From a virus (lineage: Duplodnaviria; Heunggongvirae; Uroviricota; Caudoviricetes): a stretch of 34,056 bases of DNA. The notes under the pieces are model-generated. The model was given only the letters and a program-made list of their open reading frames with translations. It did no database searches and was not told the origin of the DNA. Numbering within the stretch: the first letter of the stretch is position 1; each line of letters opens with the position of its first letter. This document shows positions 2,769 to 8,545 of this stretch, in pieces. Made by a program: the position numbers and the translations under genes. Location of the stretch: positions 1 to 34,056 of IMG/VR virus record IMGVR_UViG_3300023184_000047, one strand, 5' to 3'.

Positions 2769-3146
2769 ATGAACGAAACAACAACATTCTTAGGAACAAC
2801 AGGAACAACAGTAGGCTACTCAGGAACTTATGGAGGAGGATTTGCAACACCACTTAACGGAGGTAGTGGTACAACCATTTACACAGACAATACAATTTTA
2901 AGTACAGGAGTAACATTATCACAAGCAATAACAAATTCAAATAACATGAGCAAACAAGTAAAAGTAGCTGTATTTACAGTAGAAAGAAACGACAAAAATG
3001 AAGTAACATCTTCTAAATTTGTAAAAGAATTTTGGGTAGAACAAAAGAACGGAGGTTCAGTTGTATTAGCAGCAGCTAAACAATTAGATAAAGACTTCGA
3101 TCCAGACACGATTATGATTAGAGAAGTACAAGTAGTACAGTTCTAA
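2769..3146 (+). CDS. Hypothetical protein with Thr/Gly-rich N-terminal half (alternative start at 2946)
   Basis: ORF track; low-complexity N-terminus, then a globular-looking MSKQVKVAVF... segment. Confidence 0.7.
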   Translation: MNETTTFLGTTGTTVGYSGTYGGGFATPLNGGSGTTIYTDNTILSTGVTLSQAITNSNNMSKQVKVAVFTVERNDKNEVTSSKFVKEFWVEQKNGGSVVLAAAKQLDKDFDPDTIMIREVQVVQF

Positions 3147-3150
3147 AAAT

Positions 3151-3456
3151 AAAACACCTCCCAGTAGATAGGTCCGCCAAGAAAGTCTTTAAACAACGTG
3201 GGAACTGCGGCTCTCCCAATGTGGCTGGAATGTTTTATAAAAAAGTAACCCTAGTTATAAGGTCTTAAGTGGATAGGAAGCCCAGAGAAAATCGAAAGTG
3301 GATAGAATAATTTAAGAAGCTAAGTAATAGGGTACAAAATAAAAACTACTTGAGTAAGTGGGAGTGGTCAATCAACAACCCAAAGAAGTTCCAGGTAAAT
3401 CAATATGATATGGGATAGGCGAGCCTAAATCAGTAAGTAGCAAGTTAGTGTGTTTT
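3151..3456 (+). ncRNA. Candidate ~305-nt structured non-coding RNA, family not recognised
   Basis: ORF-free and GC-richer than its flanks. Nested helices found by eye: AAAACAC 3151-57/GTGTTTT 3450-56; CTCCCA 3158-63/TGGGAG 3359-64; AGTAG 3163-67/CTACT 3346-50; ACCCTA 3248-53/TAGGGT 3328-33 (extendable both ways); TCTTAAGT 3264-71/ATTTAAGA 3310-17; TAGG-CGAG-CCTA 3416-27. Strand inferred from neighbours. Confidence 0.6.
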
Positions 3457-3493
3457 TTCAAGGATTGAATAGTTTTTAACATTAGCGAAAAAT

Positions 3494-3570
3494 AGTCAGG
3501 TGGTGTAATGGTAGCAGTTCCAACGTCCACAAAACTAGGAAGAGTACAGGTTCGAATCCTGTCCTGATTA
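3494..3570 (+). tRNA. tRNA-like gene 1 with aberrant anticodon arm (identity undetermined)
   Basis: Acceptor AGTCAGG/CCTGATT + A73; D-loop AATGGTA; T-arm ACAGG-TTCGAAT-CCTGT. The anticodon region TCCAA...TAGGA encloses 12 nt rather than 7. No encoded CCA. Confidence 0.75.
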
Positions 3571-3576
3571 CAATGA

Positions 3577-3717
3577 GTTGATTACTCAGACAGCTATGTC
3601 TAGCTAGAAAGACATCGACATACTCTTGGGCGCAGACAAGAGCGGGTTTTGAAATCTATTTTCGCCGTTACGGAAACTAGGCTCGGAAGGCAACATATTT
3701 CGTGAGGTCTAATCAAC
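3577..3717 (+). ncRNA. Candidate ~140-nt multi-stem RNA between the two tRNA-like genes
   Basis: Closing helix GTTGATTA 3577-84/TAATCAAC 3710-17 continued by CTCA 3585-88/TGAG 3703-06; internal hairpins ATGTC.../GACAT and CTCTTG-GGCGCAGA-CAAGAG. Confidence 0.5.
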
Positions 3718-3730
3718 CATAATTGCAAAC

Positions 3731-3825
3731 AGTCAGGTGGCGGAATGGTAGACGCTAAAGAGTCAAAGAGTCGTGCTTCTAAACTCTGAGGTAACACCAT
3801 ACAGGTTCGAATCCTGTCCTGACTA
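3731..3825 (+). tRNA. tRNA-like gene 2 (Leu/Ser-type D arm, long variable arm) with aberrant anticodon arm
   Basis: Acceptor AGTCAGG/CCTGACT + A73; D arm GCG-GAATGGTAGA-CGC; same T-arm as gene 1; tandem AAAGAGTC x2; AGAGT/ACTCT stem with an 11-nt loop; GGT-AAC-ACC variable arm. No CCA. Confidence 0.75.
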
Positions 3826-3840
3826 CTATTTATACAAAAC

Positions 3841-4205
3841 GGGGATGACTGGTTTTGACAAGTTATAAGTAATTAATACAATTCAGCCCAGAGAGAGAAC
3901 TGGTAAAAACTAAGGTGAAATTAATAAATGGCAAAAACAATTCTCGTGTAGTGGCTCTAGGAGCAAACGCACAAATCGAAGCTAACATGAACAAAGTATT
4001 CTCTTTAATCGGAGAAGAAGTTGCTGTAGCAGCCTAAATTAAACAAGATTTCTTAGTTAGATTAAACTGAGTGGTGGTTTCGCTGGCTTAATTGTCGGCC
4101 CTAGAGTGCGCCTGTAGACTCTTTAAATAAGTATGGGGACAAAAGCTGTATAAAGTTGTATTGAAGAACATGGTTTGGACGCGGGTTCGACTCCCGCCAT
4201 CTCCA
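3841..4205 (+). ncRNA. ssrA: tmRNA (transfer-messenger RNA)
   Basis: 5' GGGGATGACTGGTTTTGAC and 3' GGACGCGGGTTCGACTCCCGCCATCTCCA. Acceptor GGGGATG/CATCTCC has the G3.U70 alanine determinant; internal ORF ends AVAA*. CCA not encoded. Confidence 0.95.
3930..4037 (+). other. tmRNA tag reading frame, (A)GKNNSRVVALGANAQIEANMNKVFSLIGEEVAVAA*
   Basis: Resume codon GGC follows AATAAAT; 35 sense codons to TAA 4035-37; C-terminal AVAA degron-like end. The resume point is inferred. Confidence 0.8.
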
Positions 4206-4232
4206 CTATTTTTAATTTTTAATTTAATCGTT

Positions 4233-4451
4233 ATGGCAAAGACCAAACTAAACCGCACTGCAAAGTTAGCATTTTACAATGCTCGCGAGCGTAAAGACGA
4301 CACAAATCGTTTAGCAGAAACTACAGGTTATACACCTCGTTTCATCAATTATGTAAAAAATGGTGAAAGAAAAGTAAATGATCCATTAGCAGACGCTATG
4401 TACAATCTTGCTCGAAGACGTGCAAAAAACAGCGCAGTATCTGCGAGTTAA
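4233..4451 (+). CDS. Small basic helix-turn-helix DNA-binding protein, 72 aa (true start 4233, not 4161)
   Basis: RLAETTGYTPRFINYVKNGERK fits a Cro/XRE-like HTH. The track's 4161 start lies inside the tmRNA. Confidence 0.7.
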   Translation: MAKTKLNRTAKLAFYNARERKDDTNRLAETTGYTPRFINYVKNGERKVNDPLADAMYNLARRRAKNSAVSAS

Positions 4452-4464
4452 TCAATTCAAATAT

Positions 4465-4482
4465 GCCCCTTATAGGAGGGGC
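4465..4482 (+). terminator. GC-rich hairpin, probable intrinsic terminator
   Basis: GCCCCT-TATAGG-AGGGGC directly after the HTH gene, followed by an A/T tract. Confidence 0.6.
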
Positions 4483-7771: not shown

Positions 7772-8545
7772 ATGAAAAGAATAGAAGATTATAATAAAAC
7801 ACTTCCCGTTGTAGAGCTTTATACAGCTGTACAATCAGAAGGAAGTAGAGCAGGTTATCCAACAGTAGTAATCAGAACAACAGGGTGTACTCACAGATGT
7901 TGGTTTGGTGAAGGTGGATGGTGCGATTCTTGGTACACAAGTATCCATCCTGAGAAAGGGCATATTAGTTTCCAAGACATTATTAACATGTACGATGCAA
8001 ATCCTCACATCACAGAGATGATGTTAACAGGAGGATCACCAACTATGCACCCAGCATTAGTAAACGAACTAACACATTTTGCACATGAAAGAAAAATATT
8101 TATCACTATTGAAACTGAAGGAAGTCATTTTCTGGAGACTGACTATCCTATTAATTTACTTTCCATATCACCTAAGTTTAGTAATTCGGTTCCTAAAATC
8201 GGAGTACTTACTCCTCAAGGAGCGGTTACGGATGAGAAAATGATTACTCAACACAACAAGTTAAGACTTAATTATGATGCCATTTCAAAATCAATCTCTT
8301 ACCATTCTGATTATCACTTAAAACCAGTATGGGATGGAGAGGATCAAGAAGCATTAGCTGAAATTATGGCTTGCATTAAAATGTTAGACATTCCAGAAGA
8401 CAAAGTATGGTTCATGCCAGCAGGAGATTCAAGAGAAGCTTTATTCAAATCATATCCAAAAATGTTTGATTGGGTAAGAGATAATGGTTATAGATTGACC
8501 TGGAGACCTCACATCATTGCATTTGAAGATCAAAGAGAAGTATAA
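7772..8545 (+). CDS. queE: 7-carboxy-7-deazaguanine synthase QueE (radical SAM)
   Basis: LYTAVQSEGSRAGYPTVVIRTTGC, CTHRC...WCDS, LTGGSP, TIETEG, SISPK. Confidence 0.9.
   Translation: MKRIEDYNKTLPVVELYTAVQSEGSRAGYPTVVIRTTGCTHRCWFGEGGWCDSWYTSIHPEKGHISFQDIINMYDANPHITEMMLTGGSPTMHPALVNELTHFAHERKIFITIETEGSHFLETDYPINLLSISPKFSNSVPKIGVLTPQGAVTDEKMITQHNKLRLNYDAISKSISYHSDYHLKPVWDGEDQEALAEIMACIKMLDIPEDKVWFMPAGDSREALFKSYPKMFDWVRDNGYRLTWRPHIIAFEDQREV

Follow-up and report, generated by a model that had tools for sequence, protein, structure and literature searches.

Structured RNA genes beside tRNA-shaped units in a 1.1-kb island of an uncultured phage genome

The locus described here raises the question of what a phage encodes in about one kilobase of DNA that holds tRNA-shaped units, a transfer-messenger RNA (tmRNA) and no credible open reading frame (ORF). 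It lies in IMG/VR virus record IMGVR_UViG_3300023184_000047, a linear contig of 117,779 bp with a completeness estimate of 71%, whose first 34 kb (34,056 nucleotides, nt) constitute the window that was analyzed; all large ORFs are on the + strand. The 1.1-kb RNA island occupies window positions 3149-4208 of that strand, consists of seven folded RNA units and has a GC content of 0.385, compared with ~0.31 in its surroundings. On balance, the comparisons with related phages favor a model in which a lytic phage of freshwater Flavobacteriales, one that carries tRNA arrays, encodes here a set of RNA genes in a single orientation, with tRNA-shaped units determining the ends of the RNAs next to them. 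The seven units, which include two tRNA look-alikes (TLs), are as follows.

3149..3240, + strand: module A, a ~90-nt pseudoknotted RNA motif, delimited by comparison with relatives
3241..3335, + strand: module B, a long irregular hairpin closed by ACCCUA/UAGGGU, the weakest unit
3339..3493, + strand: module C, a conserved leader-type RNA of ~155 nt that ends exactly at the 5' end of TL1
3494..3570, + strand: TL1, a 77-nt anticodon-less RNA on a tRNA-Leu frame (Rfam tRNA, 40.4 bits)
3571..3730, + strand: module E, a multi-helix RNA of ~160 nt exactly between TL1 and TL2
3731..3825, + strand: TL2, a 95-nt anticodon-less RNA on a tRNA-Leu frame (Rfam tRNA, 38.6 bits)
3841..4208, + strand: phage tmRNA (Rfam RF00023, 94.2 bits, E 1e-35, gathering score 47)

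An initial annotation of this DNA had described five RNA elements and no protein gene. The latter part is borne out, as no + strand ORF of at least 40 amino acids is present in 3147-4232 except the tag frame of the tmRNA and a TTG extension of the downstream gene, and minus-strand ORFs at 3372-3530 and 3600-3800 were rejected because they overlap RNA genes or covarying RNA helices. The count of elements had to be revised, however, to the seven units above. What had been called a first noncoding RNA, or "ncRNA1" (3151-3456), comprises modules A, B and C, which are shuffled independently among relatives; the 37-nt spacer placed behind it is in reality part of module C and contains one strand or more of a covarying helix (3444-3451 / 3479-3486), and the supposed spacers of 6 and 13 nt are single-stranded tails of module E, the former "ncRNA2". 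The tRNA-shaped elements without a usable anticodon are confirmed by matches above the Rfam gathering threshold, perfect acceptor stems, GG D loops, TTCGAAT T loops and oversized loops, and for the tmRNA the Rfam match and ARAGORN agree. Four of the seven units (modules A, B, C and E) belong to no described family: a comparison of 3147-3493 and 3571-3730 with Rfam 15 returned zero matches at E-values up to 10. Searches of the literature turned up neither the TL family nor modules A, C and E, and a survey of viral structured-RNA candidates treats tRNA-like candidates in general terms only (PMC10690425).

Modules C and E and their tRNA-shaped neighbors

Module E, which covaries strongly, was recovered in 25 IMG/VR stretches, 19 of them retained as genuine homologues. 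RNAalifold predicts seven helices, closed by the helix GUUGAUUA/UAAUCAAC, with compensatory change at 15/34 pairs; 95.6% of cells are paired, and 58 two-sided changes stand against 16.7±3.9 in shuffled alignments (0/500) and 2-6 in slid controls. Together with its invariant loops, this closed, multi-helix, covarying architecture is typical of a stable functional RNA. On its 3' side a tRNA-shaped gene starts a few bases past the 3' tail in 19/19 homologues, and on its 5' side a tRNA-shaped gene ends directly before the first base in 18/19. Which gene this is varies by phage: the flanks may be TLs, whose inserts differ and some of which have another acceptor stem, or ordinary tRNAs (L303 and L308; loci are given by their L numbers).

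Module C follows a similar rule on one side. An early search pattern was too narrow (2 matches); 49 IMG/VR stretches were eventually collected and reduced to 32 genuine unique homologues, in 27 of which the 5' end of a TL lies 0-6 nt after the module, with inserts that differ from one TL to another. The upstream neighbor is variable: an ORF or a tRNA-like element may have its 3' end there, or the place is taken by module A or by a hairpin resembling module B. Five pairs are compensatory, for example 116:153 (AU22/GC4), 119:150 (GC23/AU4), 21:44 (UA19/CG6) and 76:93 (four pair types), and both compensatory pairs of the helix noted above are among the five; the conservation of sequence nevertheless exceeds the signal of covarying structure. 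A pairing of the GGAUUGAA loop of module C with the T arm of the TL was considered and rejected, as relatives do not keep it.

Conserved immediate adjacency of a non-tRNA RNA and a tRNA-shaped unit is the mark of tRNA punctuation, and it is found here on both sides of E and on the 3' side of C. These adjacency rules are what would be expected if RNase P and RNase Z release both RNAs, and since any tRNA-shaped neighbor suffices, processing is favored over a specific partnership. The initial annotation had advanced the idea of punctuation and had proposed synteny and covariation in related phages as one check; in that check C and E are kept, covary and hold their placement beside tRNA-shaped genes. 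The idea thus gains ground for C and E, whose ends coincide with tRNA-shaped genes, but not in the form in which the TLs are mere signals, and the claim that each unknown RNA adjoins a tRNA-shaped element is correct for C and E but not for A and B, which do not abut a TL.

The tRNA look-alikes, the tmRNA and modules A and B

TL1 and TL2 have their acceptor stem and T arm in common; in each, the acceptor stem is 7 bp long, the D loop contains GG and the T loop reads TTCGAAT. In TL1 the acceptor is AGUCAGG/CCUGAUU, the discriminator is A at 3570 and a 16-nt loop takes the place of the anticodon loop; in TL2 the acceptor is AGUCAGG/CCUGACU, the D arm GCGG-AAUGGUAGA-CGC and the discriminator A at 3825. 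Both score above the gathering score of 29 of the Rfam tRNA family RF00005 and have its acceptor, T arm and D arm. The anticodon part of that family, a 5-bp stem with a 7-nt loop and U33, is absent: the loops are of 16 nt (TL1) and about 11-19 nt (TL2), and the Rfam alignment skips 16 and 27 nt, respectively, at this position. ARAGORN makes no call for TL1, and its call of TL2 as "tRNA-Phe(aaa)" was rejected on account of the oversized loop and missing U33. An intron-containing tRNA was likewise rejected, as no excision from either loop yields a 7-nt loop with U33. With the anticodon stem-loop missing, decoding is impossible.

A fuzzy search across all loci retrieved for the analysis showed that these two elements belong to a family of 217 unique variants in 134 loci, with up to 9 copies per locus and lengths of 60 to ~340 nt. 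Its form is AGUCAGGUG / Leu-type D arm / variable insert / CAGGUUCGAAUCCUGUCCUGACUA, and its members, TL1 and TL2 included, are defined by the acceptor AGUCAGG/CCUGACU, a 3-bp D stem with an AAU(U)GGUAGA loop, the T arm CAGGUUCGAAUCCUG and A73. Inserts of 13 to about 250 nt replace the anticodon arm, and the exact 24-nt 3' half occurs in at least 120 IMG/VR stretches. Conservation is highest in the acceptor and T arms, the elbow between G18G19 and the T loop is kept, A73 is present in 206/217 variants, and the D stem covaries (11:24, CG155/UA21/GC4/AU3; 12:23, GC141/CG14/UA11/AU6). None of the 217 members encodes CCA. ARAGORN calls approximately one quarter of the family, with "anticodons" that are near-random, and the D arm of the member in L091 equals that of tRNA-Leu genes annotated in each of the 5426 complete E. 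coli genomes. The family thus shares with class II bacterial tRNA-Leu the Leu D arm, A73 and the G18G19 / T-loop elbow, and departs from it in lacking the anticodon stem-loop and in its first acceptor pair, A1:U72. Inserts recur across phages and form several subfamilies; TL1 has a near-identical copy in L143 and TL2 an orthologue of 76% identity in L110. TLs often adjoin each other or real tRNAs without anything between them to release, as in L126, where 9 TLs stand beside real tRNAs with gaps down to 12 nt.

As summarized in a review on tRNA identity, the E. coli leucyl-tRNA synthetase (LeuRS) requires A73 and the tertiary contacts of the D and T loops, the anticodon and variable arm being dispensable, and a tRNA-Leu missing both the anticodon and the variable arm is still charged by it (PMC9976931). 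Judged from their sequences, the TLs retain exactly these elements (A73 and the D/T elbow), and may therefore be leucylated without decoding. Because the D arm and the LeuRS identity set are kept, because inserts recur and because many TLs have no neighbor to release, the TLs are probably products themselves, beyond any role as cutting signals. Two minor features of the inserts may be recorded here: some (e.g., L146:3721 and L153:5644) contain a second T-arm-like hairpin (GGTTCGATCC, GGTTCAATTCC), and the short motif GGUCGUAAGCCC recurs among several unrelated inserts.

The tmRNA that closes the island is a member of RF00023 by its tRNA-like domain with G3:U70 and its tag ending in AVAA; the discriminator is A at 4203, CUA stands where CCA would be expected, and relatives show a compensatory change in the acceptor (A5:U68 to G:C). 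The tag frame (3930-4037) is open from the canonical resume codon GGC (3930) to the stop at 4035-4037 and comprises 35 codons, giving the tag GKNNSRVVALGANAQIEANMNKVFSLIGEEVAVAA, of which the tag reported by ARAGORN, ANAQIEANMNKVFSLIGEEVAVAA, is the last 24 residues. The frame is open in L009, L016 and L171, with mostly conservative changes; the tag of L171 is long and related to that of the window (GKN...VVALGA), and those of L271 and L284 resemble that of L063. In comparison with bacterial one-piece and phage tmRNAs, the family model, G3:U70 and the AVAA tag end are the same, whereas the tag frame is far longer than usual and the gene is phage-borne. A permuted tmRNA (23-32 bits, below the gathering score) was rejected, as these matches arise from the T arm of TL2 upstream of the 5' half of the tmRNA.

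Module A, which heads many islands, folds into a closing stem P1, a stem P2 that continues as P2b, and a GGGA/UCCC hairpin; a CGG in the hairpin loop (3208-3210) pairs with an upstream CCG (3174-3176) to form a pseudoknot. Its edges are sharp in 8 relatives, it is 96-99% identical between phages with QueC proteins 70-80% identical, and covariance model R1 scores the copy in the window at 119.2 bits. A degenerate core pattern recovered 78 IMG/VR stretches of three subtypes, among which P1 sequences are entirely different and P2 pairs are altered, both helices being kept; in the model-based alignment A7, 11 pairs have changed on both sides, compared with 2.7±1.4 after shuffling (0/500) and 2-3 in slid controls. 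Type 2 stands alone amid large tRNA arrays. Type 3 lies inside long phage tmRNAs of 472-497 nt (L171 5938-6409 on the - strand, 71.3 bits; L271 1303-1794, 64.5 bits; L284 1839-2335, 59.5 bits), where it replaces the last pseudoknot, immediately 5' of the conserved CUAAGCUUGUA strand. Here, by contrast, the module is free-standing 600 nt upstream of the tmRNA, in which a module A-type domain was not found. On this sequence relationship, module A is most aptly seen as a stand-alone relative of the tmRNA pseudoknot domain of a sister phage lineage.

Other identities for module A were considered. Its exact core was found in 0/185,579 species genomes, save one phage contig in the bin of a Flavobacteriales metagenome-assembled genome (MAG); a host origin was rejected on this ground and because R1 matched 0/150 sampled Flavobacteriales genomes. 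An RNase P RNA, a signal recognition particle RNA or a ribozyme (GAAAGUC, GGUCCG) was rejected as well, since GAAAGUC varies among the subtypes and Rfam is blank, and for type 2 Rfam gave merely chance-level matches to small nucleolar RNAs. In relatives, module A is often followed on its 3' side by a further element, "module D" (closing stem UACCAAUGCU...AUUGGUA, e.g., L050:8737-8853), which is absent from the window. Module B has one close homologue (L071, 88%) and a single-sequence fold z of -1.3; analogous hairpins closed by ACCCU/AGGGU stand at its place in L016, L101 and L107.

BLAST comparisons with relatives show A, B and C in differing combinations: module A is joined straight to C, with B missing, in L064 and L100; a TL directly follows module A in L018 and L097; and C follows the upstream ORF without module A in L004. 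In such mosaic relatives the modules are 95-99% identical where the QueC proteins are only 70-80% identical.

A processing model and its alternatives

The model proposes that the island is probably co-transcribed by read-through from the upstream ORF (2769-3146), whereupon host RNase P would cut at the 5' ends of TL1, TL2 and the tRNA-like end of the tmRNA, and RNase Z and CCA-adding enzyme would act on the CCA-less 3' ends of the tRNA-shaped units. These cuts would release modules A, B and C as a single piece ending at 3493 and module E as a closed RNA of ~160 nt (3571-3730), and would also release both TLs and the tmRNA. RNase Z cleaves CCA-less precursors after the discriminator; tRNAs and TLs alike are CCA-less here and are followed by CAAA, CAAT or CTAA, and an RNase Z equivalog scores above cut-off in 35/41 sampled genomes of Flavobacteriales, the inferred host order. 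That tRNA shape sets the ends of the neighboring RNAs is partly supported, in that the boundaries seen in the DNA fit cutting by RNase P and RNase Z; what the comparisons show is the identity, conservation, covariation and strict adjacency of the genes, and a single transcript, its cleavage sites, charging by LeuRS and any trans-acting role are inferred.

With respect to transcription, no terminator-like hairpin is present on the + strand inside the island, the first being at 4465-4482. Metatranscriptome contigs from four studies include sequence of A, C, E, TL and tmRNA, among them a 262-nt contig identical to window 3452-3713; one RNA-library contig spans the end of a relative's upstream ORF and module A, and some metatranscriptome contigs join A to C with B skipped. 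The missing cover of flanking ORFs at ≥88% likeness is not evidence, because the protein genes of the relatives are too diverged. A 19-nt motif, TTCGTATATTTAAGTATAA, is probably a phage-specific promoter: it occurs in 11 copies in this genome (40115-65086, loci L240-L247), on the forward strand only and with 0 copies of the reversed-pattern control, just upstream of the main tRNA array and also within it, and in the relative L018 it stands directly before module A. The window holds zero copies of it; sites from a sigma-70 scan are no commoner than in shuffles, and an ATATTTATW motif occurs at chance-level frequency.

Several points weigh against this model. A promoter before the island was not found in this genome, and the RNA-library data are assembled contigs, which are blind to RNA 5' and 3' ends and may contain DNA. 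Modules A and B have no tRNA-shaped unit at their borders, so that punctuation cannot free either individually; module C may be only a cis-acting 5' leader. The fold energies of A and C as single sequences have z-scores near 0, equaled by shuffles, and in module A the support for the pseudoknot and P2b is thin, consisting of one compensatory change each, neither pair set built into the search model, from the single type 3 lineage in a GCU-repeat context. The 71%-complete contig yielded neither SmpB nor a CCA-adding enzyme; the phage tmRNA presumably uses host SmpB, and the host is itself inferred rather than known.

One alternative takes punctuation as the whole explanation, with the TLs as degenerate tRNAs without a function of their own, kept only as RNase P and RNase Z cleavage signals. 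Punctuation alone, plausible and partly supported as it is, leaves the TLs themselves unexplained. The coincidence of the ends of C and E with TL ends, the high conservation of acceptor and T arms and the ability of ordinary tRNAs to stand in for TLs beside E would all follow. A minihelix of acceptor and T arm is enough for both enzymes, however, and yet the TLs compensate changes in the D stem and conserve A73 and a Leu-type D loop; their inserts recur (TL1 in L143, TL2 in L110, several subfamilies), and arrays of the L126 type, with its closely spaced TLs, leave nothing to release. We regard this alternative as improbable. An opposite division of roles, in which only the TLs and the tmRNA are products, is unlikely in our judgment. 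C and E, and possibly A and B too, would then serve in cis as leaders or spacers that direct how the precursor folds, is processed or is stabilized, and would be degraded after use. Such a scheme would resemble the case of T4, whose tRNA cluster has an RNase III leader hairpin, and it accords with module A heading many islands, with the position of C directly 5' of a TL and its conservation more in sequence than in covarying structure, and with the lack of a known trans target. It does not account well for E, which is closed, strongly covarying and invariant in its loops and keeps its identity while the flanking TLs or tRNAs change, or for A, which occurs as a tmRNA domain and stands alone in the middle of tRNA arrays; the existence of module-sized RNA-library contigs also speaks against it, weakly. 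The island might, lastly, be recombinational debris, that is, decaying tRNA pseudogenes and recently exchanged spacer DNA that appear conserved through recent transfer, as the mosaic content among close relatives and the disparity between module and QueC identities would allow. The compensatory substitutions in A, C, E and the TL D stem, the same fold in three diverged subtypes of module A and the strictness of the adjacency rules leave this a very slim chance.

The preferred model, of RNA genes whose ends are set by tRNA-shaped neighbors, has precedents. The closest is phage T4, in whose record tRNA-Arg is followed after 1 nt by rnaD (119 nt, species 2) and, after a further gap of 6 nt, by rnaC (139 nt, species 1), a layout equal to that of TL1, E and TL2 here. 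T4 rnaC has a GGTTCGAATCC T arm, an acceptor-like closing stem and a non-tRNA interior, and rnaD is not tRNA-like. The differences are that T4 has one such pair, compared with hundreds of variants on one Leu frame in the TL family, and lacks a tmRNA as well as modules A, C and E; a blastn-short comparison with rnaC and rnaD found nothing beyond an 11-nt T loop. The resemblance is thus an analogy of layout and not family membership. To our knowledge, the function of T4 rnaC and rnaD is still unknown. Outside phages, a tRNA-shaped unit abuts a non-tRNA RNA in the tRNA-miRNA-encoded RNAs (TMERs) of murine gammaherpesvirus 68 (MHV68), in MALAT1 with its mascRNA, in mitochondrial tRNA punctuation and in plant mitochondrial t-elements, and tRNA-processing enzymes define the end of the neighboring RNA in the TMER, mascRNA and organellar systems. 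Those systems are eukaryotic or organellar, whereas cleavage here is predicted from sequence, and the TLs differ in keeping a full D arm, an aminoacylation identity set and variable inserts of their own.

As to what the island may mean, phage tRNA clusters have been known since T4 as a hiding place of small stable RNAs, and the island suggests that such RNAs are widespread and rule-bound among uncultured aquatic phages. At least three families (A, C and E) can now be defined by sequence, structure and strict placement beside tRNA-shaped genes, and module A connects a free-standing phage RNA with a tmRNA domain. Should these RNAs turn out to be released and stable, they would be a bacterial-virus counterpart of herpesvirus tRNA-linked small RNAs and a natural version of the engineered "tRNA scaffold". 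A bolder reading, which we consider doubtful, takes the island as a toolkit against host translation surveillance, made up of the long-tag tmRNA, the free-standing module A and leucine-chargeable, non-decoding shells. Were it true, module A would act in trans on the binder or binders of the tmRNA pseudoknot domain, the shells would sequester or misdirect either defenses aimed at tRNAs or LeuRS and EF-Tu, and E and C would be the first small RNAs of a bacterial virus to derive from tRNA punctuation.

Genome context and host

The island is flanked on the same strand by the following features, and in most relatives the end of the same 125-residue ORF precedes module A.

2769..3146, + strand: upstream ORF of 125 amino acids, no family, its stop codon adjoining module A
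4233-4451, + strand: downstream ORF of 72 amino acids, no family
4465-4482, + strand: first intrinsic-terminator-like hairpin of this strand, 3' of the downstream ORF

The gene block of the island also includes genes for thioredoxin and QueC-like and QueE-like proteins and a lysis cassette. The QueC-like (1847-2764) and QueE-like (7772-8545) genes, of the 7-deazaguanine pathway, bracket the RNA island and the lysis cassette. Relatives of the QueC gene occur in at least 596 IMG/VR loci, the closest of which have a tRNA array of up to 23 genes at the position of the island.

The host is probably a member of the freshwater Flavobacteriales, as suggested by sequence matches of several kinds. Among isolate phages, the only nucleotide relatives are Flavobacterium and Cellulophaga phages, which match in the 5' half of the tmRNA; the phage contig binned into a Flavobacteriales MAG, from Lake Mendota, carries a near-identical module A; and the DNA recurs in lake and freshwater metagenomes.

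The main array of this genome comprises 22 tRNAs at 40.3-44.1 kb, with more TL-type elements in or near it. Additional non-canonical tRNA-like elements lie at L238:4285-4396, 1141-1257 and 2520-2589 and at genome position 62452-62522; one of these has a Leu-type D arm with another acceptor stem, and the element at 62.4 kb has a CCGAUCGUAAGGG-type middle that is common to a TL of L009. A 1-kb gap of the main array contains an ORF for an HNH-type endonuclease (CVYCGS, LDHVIPQSKGG, CRRCNHEK; L238:3397-3890, about 42.4-42.9 kb of the genome), and T4 likewise has a homing endonuclease gene, segB, in its tRNA cluster.

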